From a virus (Duplodnaviria; Heunggongvirae; Uroviricota; Caudoviricetes), in the IMG/VR virus record IMGVR_UViG_2897346870_000003, positions 1 through 36,958 of that record: 36,958 nt of DNA; one strand, 5' to 3'. The translations under genes were made by a program, and so were the position numbers. The first letter of the stretch is position 1. Every line of letters starts with the position of its first letter. Below the pieces are notes generated by a model. That model saw only the letters and a list, made by a program, of their open reading frames with translations. It searched no databases and was not told where the DNA came from. Positions 4,600-36,958 of this stretch are shown here, one piece after another.

Positions 4600-5541
4600 A
4601 TGAGCACTAAATTAACCGGCTATGTATGGGATGGTTGTGCTGCATCAGGCATGAAATTATCCAGCGTGGCAATTATGGCCCGCCTGGCTGATTTCAGTAA
4701 TGACGAAGGTGTGTGCTGGCCATCAATTGAAACCATTGCCCGCCAGATTGGCGCGGGGATGAGTACCGTCAGAACGGCTATCGCACGGCTGGAAGCAGAA
4801 GGCTGGTTAACGCGTAGGGCGCGTCGCCAGGGTAACCGCAATGCGTCGAATGTTTATCAGCTTAACGTTGCGAAGCTTCAGGCAGCGGCATTTTCTCAAC
4901 TGTCAGATTCTGACCCGTCAAAATCTGACGCATCAAAATCTGACCCGTCAAAATTTGATGCGTCGAAATCTGGCAAAAAAGCGGGTTTTCACCCGTCAGA
5001 ATCTGGTGGGGATCCGTCAGTAAAATCAAAACATGATCCGTCAGATAAAAAAACTTCTCGTCCGGACGCTTCGCAACCGGACACGCAGACGGCTGAACAG
5101 GATTTTTTAACTCGCCATCCTGATGCGGTTGTATTCAGCCCTAAAAAGCGCCAGTGGGGGACGCAGGATGATTTGACCTGCGCACAGTGGCTCTGGAAAA
5201 AAATCATCGCCCTGTACGAGCATGCCGCCGAATGTGACGGCGAGGTGGTTCGTCCCAAAGAACCGAACTGGACAGCCTGGGCAAACGAAATTCGCCTGAT
5301 GTGTGTGCAGGATGGTCGTACTCATAAACAAATCTGCGAGATGTACAGCCGCGTCAGTCGCGATCCGTTCTGGTGCCGTAACGTGCTCAGCCCGTCGAAG
5401 CTGCGGGAAAAATGGGATGAGCTTTCCCTGCGCTTATCGCCGTCCGTCAGCACGTACACCGAAAAACGCGAAGACCCGTACTTCAAAGCCAGTTACGACA
5501 ACGTGGACTACAGCCAGATCCCGGCAGGATTCAGGGGGTGA
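4600..5541 (+). CDS. Replication initiation protein (lambda O-like; N-terminal HTH, internal iteron-encoded repeats)
   Basis: 313 aa; HTH-like N-terminus; the central SDSDPSKSDASKSDPSKFDASKS repeat is encoded by DNA iterons, the lambda-O arrangement. Confidence 0.8.
   Translation: MSTKLTGYVWDGCAASGMKLSSVAIMARLADFSNDEGVCWPSIETIARQIGAGMSTVRTAIARLEAEGWLTRRARRQGNRNASNVYQLNVAKLQAAAFSQLSDSDPSKSDASKSDPSKFDASKSGKKAGFHPSESGGDPSVKSKHDPSDKKTSRPDASQPDTQTAEQDFLTRHPDAVVFSPKKRQWGTQDDLTCAQWLWKKIIALYEHAAECDGEVVRPKEPNWTAWANEIRLMCVQDGRTHKQICEMYSRVSRDPFWCRNVLSPSKLREKWDELSLRLSPSVSTYTEKREDPYFKASYDNVDYSQIPAGFRG
4897..5050 (+). repeat. Origin-like iterons: about five tandem 15-bp repeats (CCGTCAAAATCTGAC-like) plus two GATCCGTCAG repeats, followed by an A-rich tract
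   Basis: Read directly within the O-like coding sequence. Confidence 0.7.
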
Positions 5542-6358: not shown

Positions 6359-6744
6359 AGCTGATTCTGCCTTTTCCACCCAGCGTGAACACCTACTGGC
6401 GACACCCCAACAAAGTGGCATTTGCTGGTAAGAGCCTGATAAGCGCGGCGGGGCGAAAATTCCAGAGTGCGGCGTGCACAGCAATAGTTGAGCAGTTACG
6501 TCGTCTGCCGAAACCAACGTCGGCACCTGCTTCAGTGGAGATCGTGTTGTTTCCTCCGGATAACCGGATCCGCGATCTGGACAACTATAACAAGGCGCTG
6601 TTTGACGCCCTGACCCACGCGGGTGTGTGGGAAGACGACAGCCAGGTGAAAAGAATGCTGGTGGAGTGGGGACCGGTTATCCCGGAAGGGAAGGTCGAGA
6701 TCACTATCAGTAAGTACGAGAAAACGGCGGGTGCAGCCGCCTGA
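6355..6744 (+). CDS. rusA: Holliday junction resolvase RusA
   Basis: 129 aa; ...RIRDLDNYNKALFDALTHAGVWEDDSQV is a RusA-type catalytic region. Confidence 0.9.
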   Translation: MKLILPFPPSVNTYWRHPNKVAFAGKSLISAAGRKFQSAACTAIVEQLRRLPKPTSAPASVEIVLFPPDNRIRDLDNYNKALFDALTHAGVWEDDSQVKRMLVEWGPVIPEGKVEITISKYEKTAGAAA

Positions 6745-6763
6745 TCAAGAGGAGAAACGAAGT

Positions 6764-8575: not shown

Positions 8576-8926
8576 ATGCGTGATATGTATGAAGTATTGG
8601 ACCGCTGGGGTGCATGGGCTGCAGCAGATAACAGTGGTGTGGACTGGCAGCCTGTTGCTGCAGGGTTTAAAGGTTTACTACCTCATGGAAAGAAAACACG
8701 CCAACAATGCGATGATGATGAAGGCATCATGATTGACAGCTGTGTTGCGCGATTGCGGAAATATAAGCCAGAAGAATATGAACTGATCATTGCTCACTTT
8801 GTTATCGGTATTTCACTCCGTTCAATAGCAAAGAAACGGAAATGCTCTGACGGGTCAATCAGAAAACAACTTCAAGCAGCAATAGGAGTGATTGAAGGTA
8901 TTTTGTTGATTATTAAGCCCCTGTAG
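8576..8926 (+). CDS. Q: Late-gene antitermination protein Q
   Basis: MRDMYEVLDRWGAWAA... with conserved YELIIAHFVIGISLRSIAKKRKCSDGSIRKQL segment; GGAGAAGG Shine-Dalgarno. Confidence 0.88.
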   Translation: MRDMYEVLDRWGAWAAADNSGVDWQPVAAGFKGLLPHGKKTRQQCDDDEGIMIDSCVARLRKYKPEEYELIIAHFVIGISLRSIAKKRKCSDGSIRKQLQAAIGVIEGILLIIKPL

Positions 8927-8929
8927 GGC

Positions 8930-9514
8930 TTAATAATTCATATGAATTCTGTTTCCGAGATAATATAATCCAAAGAAAGTTGATACTAAGAGTTGCCAAA
9001 CGAGGAAAGTAAATACAACAGTATAAACCATTAAAACAATACTGTTTTGATAGACATTGATTAATGGTGAAAATATAGCATTAAGTATTATTATAACAAT
9101 GCTTAATGCTGTTAAAAAAGAGAATAGCATGCAAAGAAATAATCGTCTGGTCAGAACCTCCTCTGAATTTACTACTTTTCCATTTTCTTTTGTTACTTTT
9201 ATTTCAATAGAGGCATTTCTTTCATTGCTAATCAATGGTAAATCAATCTCAGCTCTATTGAAAGTTGCTATGGCGGCCAGAGCGGCAATATAAAACCCTG
9301 GTAGGTTAGAGATAAATGAAACGATTGATTTAATGAAACCATTGTCATCAAATAAATCTTTGACAGGGATTTTTAATAGAATGAAAAGTACTGCTGTGAT
9401 AGAAGTAAGTAGAATTGGTGCTACCCAATCATATGCAGCTTTGCCGCTAATACCTTTAATAAAAAGATATCCAAACGGCTTGCCTAGATGAGAGAAAACT
9501 GAAAGTATTGGCAT
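8930..9514 (-). CDS. Hypothetical 194-aa integral membrane protein with four predicted TM helices (candidate membrane effector)
   Basis: Four hydrophobic helices (WVAPILLTSITAVLFILL; IVSFISNLPGFYIAALAAIATF; LFLCMLFSFLTALSIVIIILNAIF; IVLMVYTVVFTFLVWQLLVSTFFGLYYL); GAGG Shine-Dalgarno; 7-nt gap to the upstream gene. Confidence 0.75.
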   Translation of the reverse strand: MPILSVFSHLGKPFGYLFIKGISGKAAYDWVAPILLTSITAVLFILLKIPVKDLFDDNGFIKSIVSFISNLPGFYIAALAAIATFNRAEIDLPLISNERNASIEIKVTKENGKVVNSEEVLTRRLFLCMLFSFLTALSIVIIILNAIFSPLINVYQNSIVLMVYTVVFTFLVWQLLVSTFFGLYYLGNRIHMNY

Positions 9515-32893: not shown

Positions 32894-33466
32894 TTATTTC
32901 CCTACCGCAATCCAGAAAAATGAACTCATGCTGGCTACTGGTGCTCCGCCCGCTGTTGGAATCATCAGATTTCGGACGCCGCATCCTAAATTAGTTATCG
33001 TTGGCGCTGAAATTACTGGCGACTGAACTACGTTAGGAAGCGATGCCTGCTGAGGACCAAATCCCACATACATCGGGTATGCAGAGAACGCGACAGGAAA
33101 CGTAATAAAGATCTCTCCAGTTGATGATGGATTGGCTGTCCCCCACTGAATAATCAGACCTGACGGTAATTTTTGCCAGCCATGGCTGGTCAGGCTGGAT
33201 GTGAAGTCATTCATATCCGGAATCTGATTTGCCCCTGAGCCAACATCCCTTTGAGCCGCACTTTTCAGATCAAGATAAGTTCTTAGTTCAGCCTTATCCT
33301 TACCGCTTAAATCTGTCAGTGTCTGGTCTTTTGGTTGCGCATAGTCTTTTGTTGCCAGACGAACTACTGTATTTGTTCTGGCGAATCGCATATACGGGGC
33401 ATTGACGTTACTACTGTCAAACCCTGCAATTTTACATTCATCACCAATTAATGCATCTCCCAAACC
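32894..33466 (-). CDS. Alternative tail-fibre variable C-terminal segment (no native start; expressed only after inversion)
   Basis: Minus-strand ORF whose 5' end crosses the right recombination site; joining the constant part at the crossover gives in-frame ...ENLGLGDALIGDECKIAG... Confidence 0.7.
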   Translation of the reverse strand, partial: GLGDALIGDECKIAGFDSSNVNAPYMRFARTNTVVRLATKDYAQPKDQTLTDLSGKDKAELRTYLDLKSAAQRDVGSGANQIPDMNDFTSSLTSHGWQKLPSGLIIQWGTANPSSTGEIFITFPVAFSAYPMYVGFGPQQASLPNVVQSPVISAPTITNLGCGVRNLMIPTAGGAPVASMSSFFWIAVGK

Positions 33467-33480
33467 AACGTTTATGAAAA
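33455..33480. other. Right inversion crossover site: ATCTCCCAAACC-AA-CGTTTATGAAAA, inverted relative to the left site
   Basis: Core AA is the reverse complement of the left core TT; the 13-bp inverted repeat AAC(C/G)TTGGTTTGGG is shared with the left site. Confidence 0.7.
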
Positions 33481-33534
33481 TGCAGAAATAACGAGCAAAT
33501 GGCATCATTCCTGCTTTTGTCAGGGAGATCTACC

Positions 33535-34089
33535 ATGCTTATTGGCTATGTACGTGTGTCAACAAATGACCAGAACACAGATCTACAACGTAATGCGCTG
33601 AACTGTGCAGGATGCGAGCTGATTTTTGAAGACAAGATAAGCGGTACAAAGTCCGAAAGGCCGGGACTGAAAAAACTGCTCAGGACATTATCGGCAGGTG
33701 ATACGCTGGTGGTCTGGAAACTGGACCGACTGGGGCGCAGTATGCGGCATCTTGTCGTGCTGGTGGAGGAGTTGCGCGAACGAGGCATCAACTTTCGTAG
33801 TCTGACGGATTCAATTGATACCAGTACCCCAATGGGGCGCTTTTTCTTTCATGTGATGGGTGCCCTGGCTGAAATGGAGCGTGAACTGATTGTTGAAAGA
33901 ACAAAAGCTGGACTGGAAGCTGCTCGCGCACAGGGACGAATTGGTGGACGTCGTCCCAAACTTACACCAGAACAATGGGAACAGGCCGGACGATTAATTG
34001 CATCAGGCGTTCCTCGCCAGAAGGTGGCGATTATCTATGATGTTGGTGTGTCAACTTTGTATAAGAGGTTTCCTGCAGGGGATAAATAA
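33535..34089 (+). CDS. pin: Serine DNA invertase (Hin/Gin/Pin family)
   Basis: MLIGYVRVSTNDQNTDLQ... with catalytic Ser, C-terminal HTH; AGGGAGA Shine-Dalgarno. Confidence 0.95.
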   Translation: MLIGYVRVSTNDQNTDLQRNALNCAGCELIFEDKISGTKSERPGLKKLLRTLSAGDTLVVWKLDRLGRSMRHLVVLVEELRERGINFRSLTDSIDTSTPMGRFFFHVMGALAEMERELIVERTKAGLEAARAQGRIGGRRPKLTPEQWEQAGRLIASGVPRQKVAIIYDVGVSTLYKRFPAGDK

Positions 34090-34195
34090 AGTTAAAGACA
34101 CTTTGTGTACAAAAGAAAGTAAAACAACAGCAACTTGTTGCAATTTTATCAATAAAAGTAGTATTGTCGTGAAAAATTGATTAAAGATTAATATT

Positions 34196-35029
34196 ATGCA
34201 TGTTTTTGATAATAATGGAATTGAACTGAAAGCTGAGTGTTCGATAGGTGAAGAGGATGGTGTTTATGGTCTAATCCTTGAGTCGTGGGGGCCGGGTGAC
34301 AGAAACAAAGATTACAATATCGCTCTTGATTATATCATTGAACGGTTGGTTGATTCTGGTGTATACCAAGTCGTAGTATATCTGGCGTCATCATCAGTCA
34401 GAAAACATATGCATTCTTTGGATGAAAGAAAAATCCATCCTGGTGAATATTTTACTTTGATTGGTAATAGCCCCCGCGATATACGCTTGAAGATGTGTGG
34501 TTATCAGGCTTATTTTAGTCGTGCGGGGAGAAAGGAAATTCCTTCCGGCAATAGAACGAAACGAATATTGATAAATGTTCCAAGTATTTATAGTGGCAGT
34601 TTTTGGGCGTCTATAATACGTGGAGAACTATCAGAGCTTTCACAGCCTACAGATGATGAATCGCTTCTGAATATGAGGGTTAGTAAATTAATTAAGAAAA
34701 CGTTGAGTCAACCCGAGGGCTCCAGGAAACCAGTTGAGGTAGAAAGACTACAAAAAGTTTATGTCCGAGACCCGATGGTAAAAGCTTGGATTTTACAGCA
34801 AAGTAAAGGTATATGTGAAAACTGTGGTAAAAATGCTCCGTTTTATTTAAATGATGGAAACCCATATTTGGAAGTGCATCATGTAATTCCCCTGTCTTCA
34901 GGTGGTGCTGATACAACAGATAACTGTGTTGCCCTTTGTCCGAATTGCCATAGAGAATTGCACTATAGTAAAAATGCAAAAGAACTAATCGAGATGCTTT
35001 ACGTTAATATAAACCGATTACAGAAATAA
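34196..35029 (+). CDS. mcrA: McrA-type HNH restriction endonuclease (modified-cytosine restriction)
   Basis: 277 aa; C-terminal HNH motif (CENCG...HHVIPLSSGGADTTDNCVALCPNCH); the pin-mcrA pairing next to the icd fragment matches the recalled e14 arrangement. Confidence 0.85.
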   Translation: MHVFDNNGIELKAECSIGEEDGVYGLILESWGPGDRNKDYNIALDYIIERLVDSGVYQVVVYLASSSVRKHMHSLDERKIHPGEYFTLIGNSPRDIRLKMCGYQAYFSRAGRKEIPSGNRTKRILINVPSIYSGSFWASIIRGELSELSQPTDDESLLNMRVSKLIKKTLSQPEGSRKPVEVERLQKVYVRDPMVKAWILQQSKGICENCGKNAPFYLNDGNPYLEVHHVIPLSSGGADTTDNCVALCPNCHRELHYSKNAKELIEMLYVNINRLQK

Positions 35030-35167
35030 AATTATTTATTAAAGTCACATTTAAGACGTAATATCCTACAGGGTAAAAATTTTCTCTGATCTTAACTTCT
35101 GCAAATGTTAACTGCTATTTTTATGCTAAAAATGGTTATCAAAACTCAAAAACACATGTTTATAATC

Positions 35168-35204
35168 AATGAGTTATAGAAATGCTAAGGGCTAATGAGT
35201 TATA
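35168..35204 (+). repeat. Direct repeats AATGAGTTATA (x2, 26 bp apart) in the AT-rich att-proximal arm; candidate Int arm-type or IHF sites
   Basis: Read directly at 35168-35178 and 35194-35204. Confidence 0.4.
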
Positions 35205-35262
35205 TGCAAATTAGTAAAATTATGTTGCTATGTCAAATAGTTACGATTTAGTCATCTAACTA

Positions 35263-35427
35263 ATGCTGCGCCATATGGGTTGGACTGAAGCGGCTGACCT
35301 GATTGTTAAAGGTATGGAAGGCGCAATCAATGCCAAGACCGTAACTTATGACTTCGAACGTCTGATGGAAGGCGCTAAGCTGCTGAAATGTTCAGAGTTT
35401 GGTGAAGCGATCATCGAAAACATGTAA
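35263..35427 (+). pseudogene. icdC: Displaced 3' end of isocitrate dehydrogenase gene icd (icdC remnant) marking attR
   Basis: Translates to [54 protein letters not shown], the Icd C-terminus as recalled; no upstream icd sequence. Confidence 0.9.
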
Positions 35428-35450
35428 TCTCTCCATGTGTTAAATATTGA

Positions 35451-35479
35451 AACGGGCGTATAACACGCCCGTTGTTTTA
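35451..35479 (+). terminator. Rho-independent terminator (icd terminator): AACGGGCG-TATAACA-CGCCCGTT plus T-rich tail
   Basis: Read directly 24 nt after the icd-fragment stop codon. Confidence 0.8.
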
Positions 35480-35529
35480 TTTATGTGGATATTATTAATA
35501 GCATATCGAGCATATTTATATGAAGCCCA

Positions 35530-35853
35530 TTACTTGAGCCCATATGGGCATATTTTTATAATGCAACTATTATGTAAACATTTATTTGTTATTTTGCTTT
35601 CTCCTGGAGGACACTCTTGACTGCTTTTGAGTAAACTCCATAAATCCTTGTTGAATGGTGCGATGTGATAAATAGTAATAGGATATTCTTTATCCTTAAG
35701 GATAATACCAGACTTAACCGGTGTAAATATACTGCCAGGAGGGAGAAATATAGTAGATTGATACCAGATGATCATTTTCATATTACCCCATATGGCTGAA
35801 AAAGATATACCACATGTAGGTTGAATTACCGTGTCAATTACTATCCACTTCAT
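35530..35853 (-). CDS. iraM: Anti-adaptor protein IraM-like (107 aa), host gene beyond attR
   Basis: 107-aa ORF in an AT-rich region right after the icd remnant; matches the recalled K-12 order mcrA-icdC-iraM-ycgX and IraM size; not searched. Confidence 0.7.
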
Positions 35854-36315
35854 TTGTTATGTCTTATCCCACGGTATTTAATATGGTTCATTAGGATGTT
35901 TGTTTCTTGATTTTGCATATGAGTATATTACCCCCCCCCTCAAAAAAATAAATTAATTAAAATGATGGCTTATATAAAATAAAATTTAAAGCAAGGAATC
36001 TCAATGGATGTTAAACAAAATGAGATTTTGTGAAAGCAATAAATTATTGACTTCGTTTTAGATTTGTTTAGCTATAATGTTATACATTCAAATGACTGAA
36101 CATCCTGTAATTAAAACATAGCCTTTATGCTACTTTGTGCCAATTTGCTAAACATTATGGTTGCCTTTTTATATAACGATAATAATGAATATAAGCATGA
36201 CATGAGAATAAGGTTTCAATTTTTGAGTTATATAGGAATGATTTAACCTGTTCCTGGCTAAAATACATATAACCGGATGATGACTAAACCAAAATACATG
36301 TGCGTTAAGTATTGA

Positions 36316-36345
36316 AACGGACGTGTGGCACGGCCGTTGTTTTTA
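36316..36345 (+). terminator. Diverged second copy of the icd-terminator-like hairpin (AACGGACGTG-TGG-CACGGCCGTT plus T5)
   Basis: 9 of 10 bp stem plus T-run; flanking TTAAGTATTGAAACGG...CCGTTGTTTTTAT parallels 35441-35480. Confidence 0.55.
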
Positions 36346-36553
36346 TAAATATGTTAACCGTTATAAAATAACGTATCAAAAGTCAAGTGATCACATTTCA
36401 AATATCAAGTTGATAGTATTAGTCTGGTGATTATTTATGGGTGACAATAAAAAGACAGTATTAATCATCCATAGAGATAGTCTCTGCACTTTTATTTCCA
36501 TTATGCTAATGCCTTACTGAATTATGAAGCATTTCTTAAGTATCCAACTTTAG

Positions 36554-36958
36554 CTAGATTAATGGTTTATTATTTTCTACATCTTCAATATATAAAAGCG
36601 TATTATCAATGGCGTAGTAACTGCGTTTGTTATGATTAACATCAGTAACCCACCGGAAAACGCCCGCGCCTGCCAGTGTTGAACAGTATTCCCGAAATGT
36701 AGATTTTCCGCAAATATGAAGCAATGCGGCCTCTTTTATTTTAGCAGGGTTCTTGGTCGTACTAACTTTTAACAGGTTCCTGGTTCCTCTTAATAACAAA
36801 ACCGTATCATCGTGAGTAATAATTCTGATGTTATCCGTAGCCAGATAATAAATGTAATGTGCAATACGGTGATGTTTTAATTCTGAATAAAACCAGGAGA
36901 AGTTTTGCTCTTTTCTCACTTGCTCAAACATCTTTTGAAAAACAACGACCTGATCCAT
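36554..36958 (-). CDS. ycgX: YcgX-like protein (134 aa); start codon at the window edge
   Basis: 134-aa ORF whose ATG is complementary to 36956-36958; assignment from recalled K-12 gene order and size. Confidence 0.65.
   Translation of the reverse strand: MDQVVVFQKMFEQVRKEQNFSWFYSELKHHRIAHYIYYLATDNIRIITHDDTVLLLRGTRNLLKVSTTKNPAKIKEAALLHICGKSTFREYCSTLAGAGVFRWVTDVNHNKRSYYAIDNTLLYIEDVENNKPLI

Follow-up and report, generated by a model that had tools for sequence, protein, structure and literature searches.

A decayed second copy of the icd terminator beyond iraM: probable layered prophage remains at the icd integration site of Escherichia coli

The right end of the window, the whole stretch of 36,958 nt analysed here (IMG/VR virus record IMGVR_UViG_2897346870_000003, positions 1 to 36,958), carries the end of an e14-type prophage and, beyond it, the gene iraM between two elements that resemble the terminator of icd. 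This arrangement raises the question of how iraM came to lie there. The original prediction was that iraM had itself been acquired by an older integration at icd, which left tandem att scars on both sides of it. In what follows, the end of the resident prophage, the relationship of the two terminator-like elements (T1 and T2), the flanks of the second element, and the distribution and affinity of iraM are examined in turn.

At the right end of the window, pinE and mcrA (34196-35029) lie upstream of the AT-rich P arm of the resident e14-type prophage (35030-35262, plus strand). The P arm is followed by icdC (35263-35427, plus strand), an ORF on the attR side that comprises the last 54 codons and the stop codon of a displaced icd 3' end, and by T1 (CATGTGTTAAATATTGAAACGGGCGTATAACACGCCCGTTGTTTT; 35434-35478, plus strand), the icd 3'-UTR with its intrinsic terminator, in which a stem (35451-35459 paired with 35465-35473) encloses the loop ATAAC and precedes a T-run. 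icdC is labelled as a partial isocitrate dehydrogenase pseudogene in the matching genomes; where the prophage is absent, the same stretch forms the 3' end of an intact icd. Since the prophage-free genomes match the window only from 35263 onward, the prophage ends at this position, as had been read from the letters beforehand, and the assignment of 35263-35479 to the displaced icd end on the attR side is supported. No second icd fragment was found in the 37-kb window, and therefore the left junction of the prophage lies outside it.

Beyond T1 is the iraM island (35479-36296, minus strand), which contains iraM (35530-35853, minus strand), an AT-rich region upstream of it that includes ymgK, and a C9 tract (35921-35929). 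The island is followed by T2 (CATGTGCGTTAAGTATTGAAACGGACGTGTGGCACGGCCGTTGTTTT; 36297-36343, plus strand), a relic second icd 3'-UTR/terminator with an imperfect stem (36316-36325 paired with 36329-36338, with one A/G mismatch). The alignment of T1 and T2 spans 47 columns and contains six substitutions and one indel of 2 nt; its local score was 53, as compared to a mean of 18.4 (sd 2.2, maximum 28) for shuffled sequences; a repeat search returned the pair as 43 nt, 84% identical and 865 nt apart. The ancestral form of T2 (CATGTGCGTTAAGTATTGAAACGGGCGTATGGCACGCCCGTTGTTTT), which is kept with a perfect T1-type stem in five other iraM-carrying genomes, differs from T1 by three substitutions (A>G in TTAAAT and AA>GG in the loop) and a CG insertion. 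Because the shared part includes ca. 17 unpaired nucleotides 5' of the hairpin (CATGTG..TTAA.TATTGAA) and the T-run as well as the hairpin itself, the likeness goes beyond that of a generic hairpin and supports T2 as a true paralogue of the icd terminator; the fear that the copy beyond iraM might be a mere hairpin with no shared flanks was thus not borne out.

The homology is, all the same, confined to these 47 nt. Alignments anchored either at CATGTG of the UTR or at CATGT of the last icd codons gave the same outcome, with neither flank better than shuffled sequences. Upstream of T2, no remnant of the icd coding sequence was detectable in the anchored alignments (p 0.06-0.37), so that the similarity is significant in the terminator/3'-UTR part, ends at the T-run and does not extend to the 165-nt coding part. 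When the e14 P arm (35030-35262) was used as a query, no likeness to it was found upstream of T2 (z 0.4), and the phage 21-type P' arm showed no similarity to the flanks of T1 or T2. A transposon-type target-site duplication was also considered and is not supported: the repeat is 47 nt long and imperfect even in its ancestral form, and 35479-36296 contains no transposase and no sizeable ORF other than iraM.

The way in which icd-targeting phages are built bears directly on what a scar at this locus should look like. The use of icd by e14 and phage 21, the displaced icdC and the phage-borne icd end have long been known (PMC6379469, PMC13626634, PMC12803456). In elements of both the phage 21 type and the e14 type, attP holds an icd 3' end, a terminator and a P' arm, host homology stops at the T-run, and the crossover lies inside icd, 165 nt before the stop codon. 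A phage 21-type attL is seen in O157:H7 TW14359, where the terminator after icd is the same as T1 and leads into TTCCCCAAAAC-type repeats and then an integrase gene; an e14-type attL is seen in strain TUM9812, whose icd terminator has diverged (TTAACGGGAGCGTAATGCTTCCGTTATTTTTT) and precedes three GTTATCAAAA repeats, with intE beyond them. The annotation of phage 21 (GenBank OL657228.1) likewise lists an ICDH-like 3' fragment, a terminator, 'attP subsites P1P2P3' with the consensus YYTTCCCCAAAA, and int. From 80 Enterobacteriaceae loci retrieved through RluE, we examined 76 icd 3' ends. The terminator of most of them fits the pattern AACGGGAGCC....GGTTCCCGTTTTTT; in many of the loci the T-run is directly followed by an arm of either the e14 or the phage 21 type, and tandem icd 3' remnants were found downstream in six, from the genera Kosakonia, Enterobacter, Salmonella and Citrobacter. 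The reference description of the phage 21 attP is reportedly that of Wang et al. from 1997 (J Bacteriol 179:5705). Since both phage families bring an icd end and a terminator and their homology with the host stops at the T-run, a stack of copies is expected to build up from one integration to the next, as each integration moves the previous icd end and terminator to the far side of the new prophage. With respect to T2, the proposal of tandem scars at the same att site has to be qualified: T2 is paralogous to the icd terminator, but it does not mark that site in the strict sense, as the crossover takes place 165 nt upstream within icd and no coding remnant precedes T2.

We then compared the sequence directly right of T2 (36344-36400, plus strand) with the phage arms. 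The 55 nt right of T2 (TAACCGTTATAAAATAACGTATCAAAAGTCAAGTGATCA) could be aligned in register with the e14-type P' arm (TAACGGTTATCAAAATTTTATCAAAACAAGTTATCA), with a local score of 32 against 16.5 ± 2.6 for shuffled sequences (maximum 29 of 500; z 5.9), and a blastn comparison of 36295-36384 with the terminator and P' arm of the divergent lineage L106, which is described below, gave 75% over 92 nt (E 2e-9). In left-anchored comparisons with 17 e14-type arms, the T2 flank scored z 3.5 (0/300 shuffles) and the same flank in an iraM-less strain z 3.1, while fourteen control flanks scored z -2 to 1.6. A profile HMM of e14-type P' arms matched the flank weakly (E 0.19). With this in-register similarity, family-specific arm-type repeats probably stand directly after the terminator at T2. 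These results suggest that 36344-36400 is a probable decayed e14-type P' arm, and T2 with its right flank looks like an old attL-type scar of an e14-type element.

Direct repeats within the arm of the resident prophage had also been proposed as candidate arm-type sites of the integrase. The repeat AATGAGTTATA is real: exactly two copies are present, at 35168-35178 and 35194-35204, 26 nt apart, where ca. 0.5 one-mismatch matches would be expected per whole window. It was, however, absent from the e14-type P' arms and from the one other P arm examined, that of the e14-type element of Kosakonia, and the conserved motif is instead GTTATCAAAA, with which AATGAGTTATA has only GTTAT in common. GTTATCAAAA is shared by the e14-type P' arms and the P arms of the window and the Kosakonia element; it is located at 35135-35144, within GGTTATCAAAAC (35134-35145), ca. 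126 nt before the icd fragment, and its placement is the same in the Kosakonia e14-type attR, while the phage 21-type attRs have TCCCCAAAA at that position. An nhmmer profile of 21 e14-type P' arms also matched the window at 35131-35147 (E 0.012). The AATGAGTTATA repeats could serve the binding of another factor.

The distribution of iraM was examined in 5426 complete E. coli genomes. The icd-linked iraM allele was present in 3913 of them, and the junction of the island, T2 and its flank was contiguous in 3687, in which T2 accompanies the icd-linked iraM. In another 1037 genomes (ca. 19%), a single terminator was joined to the right flank of T2 by a contiguous junction and the 865 nt were absent, which amounts to a presence/absence polymorphism with its breakpoints at the repeats. 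Examples without iraM are Nissle 1917, LF82 and an O25:H4 strain, all of which we take to belong to phylogroup B2. In strain DLL7555, which is prophage-free at icd, a T1-type terminator runs directly into the T2 right flank (TTGTTTT followed by TATAAATATGTTAACCG...), then ymgL and ycgX, and exactly the inter-repeat 865 nt are missing. The absence of iraM from CFT073 has been reported (PMC4045071). In O157:H7, the whole right side is lost, from the prophage as far as ompT. A locus from Shigella flexneri that resembled a variant island was discarded, since its assembly is rich in errors and IS1 interrupts the left flank of iraM. The divergence of bluR-bluF and rluE-icd separates the iraM-less genomes, the iraM-carrying genomes and the divergent lineage as a three-way split, and gives no polarity for the iraM indel.

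These data have to be weighed against the alternative that a small iraM-bearing DNA was inserted at the terminator by a Campbell-type or illegitimate event, for instance as a circular fragment that carried a terminator homologue and crossed over within the identical right-hand 15 nt (CACGCCCGTTGTTTT). On this view, the genomes without iraM would preserve the ancestral form, and T2 would be a later arrival that came together with iraM. The T1-type hairpin joined to the T2 right flank in iraM-less strains is what a crossover at the right end predicts, and both the missing icd coding remnant and the confinement of the similarity to 47 nt fit such an event. It would, however, require recombination within 15 nt, and it leaves unexplained why T2 is continuous with a flank resembling the e14-type P' arm, a flank that iraM-less strains have as well. 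Besides, the T2 right flank differs by 5.7-7.6% from its iraM-less form, and the ancestral T2 differs from the terminator of the iraM-less strains by 4 events in 47 nt, about the divergence of the adjacent flank; these values are compatible with T2 and its right flank being one orthologous block, and since the two divergences are alike, they would fit T2 as a former working terminator. Furthermore, a search for free elements that carry a T2-type terminator gave none: the 27 true matches in viral contigs were chromosomal flank included in prophage predictions, four others were unrelated 18-mers, and the cultured phages had only T1-type or loop-variant terminators. We consider this insertion an unlikely origin of the island.

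Both iraM and ycgX have relatives in phages. IraM matched phrog_4407 (4e-51), and YcgX (ycgX, 36554-36958, minus strand, within the ymgL-ycgX region at 36401-36958) matched PF07166, DUF1398 (1.2e-47), and phrog_413 (1.5e-41). Homologues of IraM with 54-73% identity lie between the antiterminator gene Q and the holin/lysis genes, adjoining nanS-p or stx, in prophages of E. coli and E. albertii and in Stx2 phages such as 1717 and 2851; E. albertii prophages have a YcgX homologue with 70% identity, placed between their lysis genes and nu1. The IraM/IraL/RssC anti-adaptor family is thus found in moron positions of prophages. One prophage (L113) has an iraM-like gene between Q and the lysis genes and a DUF1398 gene between the lysis genes and nu1. 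Both morons run antisense to the late genes, and this order and orientation equal what is seen for iraM and ycgX in the window, provided that the attL side of the prophage faces icd. The similarity of the phage-borne iraM homologues to the island was limited to the coding region (ca. 70-73%), and their non-coding flanks showed none. No int or xis was found between T1 and bluR, and only the two morons are left there. iraM and ycgX are thus shown to belong to phage protein families, and their homologues are morons of lambdoid and Stx prophages.

A divergent lineage that is labelled E. coli (L106) provides a further comparison. Its rluE-icd region is ca. 96% identical to that of E. coli proper, as compared to 98.4-98.8% within the species. 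Downstream of icd, it carries a T1-type terminator and a fresh e14-type P' arm, then a 455-aa gene and one for a TrkH-like protein, and finally iraM, a ymgB-like gene and ycgX; T2, the arm-like flank and ymgL have no copy there. iraM and ycgX of L106 differ from those of E. coli by ca. 12-20% (19% and 11% for the two genes, respectively), and bluR-bluF and icd by 3-4%. Since iraM and ycgX are far more diverged than the flanking genes, they were probably acquired independently, and the layout is probably not the ancestral one. L106 thus probably represents a separate, related acquisition at icd, which favours the general idea of integration and leaves the exact history in E. coli unfixed; as L106 has no segment of T2, P' arm and ymgL, the E. 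coli locus may also be a single rearranged prophage remnant or the product of another order of events. In line with the latter, one old icd prophage could have carried both iraM and ycgX, and T2, the P' arm and ymgL would have come to lie between them when the locus was later duplicated in part or rearranged, with no second integration. L113 and L106 hold the two genes in one element in the same order and orientation, and L106 has no terminator copy between them, as this history would have it. It calls, however, for several ad hoc steps (a duplication and two deletions), and the divergence of iraM and ycgX in L106 against that of their neighbours speaks against it, which makes it improbable in our judgement and weaker than the insertion at the terminator.

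We also evaluated whether T2 still has the properties of a terminator. T1 has all the properties of an intrinsic terminator, namely a stable hairpin (9 pairs in the terminator scan; -18.4 kcal/mol, z -4.5), a T-run, a co-oriented gene and a conserved stem. All three iraM-less genomes that were examined share its hairpin, loop and T-run without change, as do, except for one T-run base in a single locus (L152), all phage 21-type attL/attP copies of the same loop type, and its 5' unpaired part is variable in the O25:H4 strain 18044 and in phage 21. The folding energy of T2 is -11.7 kcal/mol (z -0.3), about that of shuffled sequences; no plus-strand gene lies upstream of it among the ORFs of the window, and an Rfam scan of 33000-36958 gave nothing near any gathering threshold. 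In the K-12-like lineage, T2 has three changes in addition to those of the ancestral form (G>A, A>G and C>G), one genome (L135) has an intermediate with only the G>A, two of the five genomes with the ancestral form (L096 and L097) have one further G>A in the 3' arm, and a separate stem-breaking G>A is found in a different lineage. The segment containing T2 has 10.6% variable columns, a rate similar to that of its non-coding neighbours. The changes in the hairpin had been described as compensatory-like; no broken pair is restored, however, and in the window G>A and C>G strike both partners of one base pair and leave the A/G mismatch. Because the stem changes leave this mismatch and the folding energy falls to the level of shuffled sequences, while other lineages keep a perfect stem, that description is unsupported. 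From its pattern of substitutions, T2 is a decaying relic, drifting and not compensating, which would no longer terminate anything. The proposal that T2 is maintained as a functional element, be it a terminator or insulator that serves the iraM-ycgX intergenic region or a secondary attachment site, with selection or gene conversion keeping it like T1, can draw on its presence with iraM in ca. 3700 genomes and on its remaining hairpin and T-run, but with shuffle-level energy, independent stem-breaking substitutions in several lineages, neighbour-like variability, neither a plus-strand gene nor an Rfam RNA upstream, and a poor T-run as the tail on the minus strand, it is very improbable.

Based on these results, we favour the reading that the 1.7 kb from the resident prophage to bluR are stacked prophage remains at the icd integration hot spot, to which we assign a probability of roughly 0.65. 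According to this reading, an old e14-type prophage would have left T2, the decayed P' arm, ymgL and ycgX, the last of which would be its surviving DUF1398 moron from the position between Rz and nu1. The present icd end with T1 would then have been brought in, or left standing, by a later icd prophage, which would have decayed to its Q-S moron iraM; deletions would have taken the integrase and arms of this prophage together with the 165-nt icd fragment that once stood before T2. The resident e14-type prophage would have come last, creating icdC and T1 at its right end. The iraM-less strains would either have never carried the second element or have lost it by excision or recombination between the repeats. 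The original prediction of an iraM acquired by integration at icd with tandem scars left behind is partly supported, namely by the layout, the arm-like flank, the morons, the indel seen in 1037 genomes, the linkage in 3687 and L106. An attR-type scar of the oldest element was not found between ycgX and dadA, and an icd 3'-end/terminator profile run from icd to dadA in an e14-free strain matched only the real icd end; since the cross-genus terminator profile also missed T2 (E <= 10), this result says little on short scars that consist of a terminator only.

The stacking of copies may also bear on the terminator of icd itself. All sampled Escherichia loci without a directly following e14-type arm have the terminator stem GGGCGT/ACGCCC, while almost all other sampled Enterobacteriaceae have GGGAGCC/GGTTCCC, and the Escherichia type is identical to the terminator of the phage 21-type attP. 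Since the Escherichia terminator is unlike that of the other Enterobacteriaceae and identical to that of a phage attP, it could conceivably be of phage origin and be kept uniform by repeated integration and loss of icd phages, with T2 as a fossil of an earlier copy; we offer this as a tentative idea that is more doubtful than not. If it is true, the terminator of a host gene would be in effect supplied and maintained by phages.

We found no earlier description of the second terminator copy or of layered scars at icd in the literature. iraM has been placed on the e14 prophage (PMC4045071), and this placement is contradicted by our observations: because iraM lies outside the attR of e14 and is present in most e14-free genomes, it is not part of e14. 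Its corrected placement would be an older prophage remnant outside that attR. The clean 865-nt difference at the terminator copies would account for the absence of iraM, the PhoPQ-linked RpoS stabiliser, from a fifth of the complete genomes. The icd site appears to accumulate layered scars of which terminator and arm fragments alone persist, and such scars should be useful for delimiting prophages and for interpreting the mosaicism of icd 3' ends. The scars at T1 and T2 are otherwise a matter of genome archaeology; the mechanism is not new, and relatives of IraM on prophage islands are already known (PMC4045071).

Among the known systems, IraL of CFT073, which is carried on the potB island (Hryckowian et al. 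2014, PMC4045071), and the iraM homologues of Stx2 phages resemble the present case in that members of the IraM family reside on prophage-type islands, which supports a phage origin of icd-linked iraM. Those genes lie inside recognisable prophages, in the Q-S region, whereas icd-linked iraM is an orphan between terminators. The attR/icdC structure of e14 in E. coli K-12 (Hill, Gray & Brody 1989, as cited in PMC6379469 and PMC13626634) is at the same locus, where a lambdoid element supplies a new icd 3' end and the old one is displaced to the right, and it corresponds to 35263-35478 in the window; T2 differs from it in lacking the coding fragment, so that just the 3'-UTR and terminator are left, and in lying 0.87 kb further right, beyond iraM, with no recognisable prophage bounding it. 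In the phage 21 attP, an ICDH-like 3' fragment precedes a terminator that shares 95.7% identity with T1 over 47 nt, three YYTTCCCCAAAA sites and int follow, and the order of terminator and then arm repeats is the same as that proposed for T2 and 36344-36400, except that the repeats beside T2 are e14-like (GTTATCAAAA) and degenerate and are not followed by int. Finally, tRNA and tmRNA genes carry tandem arrays of prophages and islands with repeated att scars. The icd target is, unlike these, a protein-coding 3' end with its terminator, and its older scars are without the coding part; as in these arrays, however, repeated integration at a single site leaves copies of the 3' end of the target, as direct repeats, between elements in decay.

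The divergent Escherichia lineage represented by locus L106 (GCA_009898965.1) carries a YmgB/AriR-family gene between iraM and ycgX (8800-9060; PF10798, 8.7e-14). This gene is paralogous to ycgZ-ymgA-ariR, which lie nearby, and only ca. 35 nt of it is left in E. coli proper, at 35885-35919 of the window. A different hairpin terminator, GCCCCTCTACGAAGGGGC followed by a T-run, was found on the reverse complement of L106 at ca. 6700-6745. This hairpin occupies the exact spot where T1, the icd 3'-UTR and terminator of the window (35434-35478), adjoins the iraM 3' flank, and the homology between the window and L106 begins immediately after the T-run of the L106 terminator. The T-runs of T1 and the GCCCCTCTACGAAGGGGC terminator have a short GTTTT match in common; a deletion mediated by this match could have placed T1 beside iraM.

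Extra icd 3' fragments were present 2-5 kb downstream of icd in the comparison loci L019, L040, L029, L044, L068, and L072. The genera carrying such fragments were Kosakonia, Enterobacter, Citrobacter, and Salmonella, the last with two degenerate copies. Stacked icd scars seem to be common throughout the family. In L007, labelled Enterobacter hormaechei, RluE and the icd end are 100% identical to those of E. coli and are joined to a terminator and downstream DNA of the Enterobacter type, which suggests that this locus is recombinant or a chimeric assembly. L008, a 4.4-kb contig labelled Streptomyces flavalbus whose RluE is 99% E. coli, is probably contamination.

Full-length weak matches to IraM (25-27% identity, tblastn) were obtained in the Enterobacter loci L007, L028, and L029 at ca. 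14.5-14.8 kb, ca. 4 kb past rluE on the side opposite icd. These matches may represent a distant IraM/RssC-like gene at a conserved location. The closest homologue of YcgX (77%) in other Escherichia lineages (L100-L102, e.g. sp. E10V10) lies away from icd; it is found close to the fli operons, flanked by tusA-like and acetyltransferase genes.

A C9 homopolymer (35921-35929) followed by TCA7 is situated upstream of iraM in the window, approximately 70 nt from the start of the gene. The length of this tract was C8, C9, or C10 among K-12-like copies, and just C3-C4 was found at its position in other E. coli lineages. While the tract could be a slippage-prone run within the iraM regulatory region, its length differences could also be sequencing noise.

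Six tandem 15-nt units (TCAAAATCTGACCCG-like) were detected at 4888-5010 by the repeat search of the window, and they look like the replication-origin iterons of a lambdoid phage. Since the same search found no second icd fragment within the window, the prophage ending at 35262 is longer than 35 kb. It is, therefore, much larger than e14 of K-12 (15 kb), although its right end, with pinE and mcrA, is e14-like.
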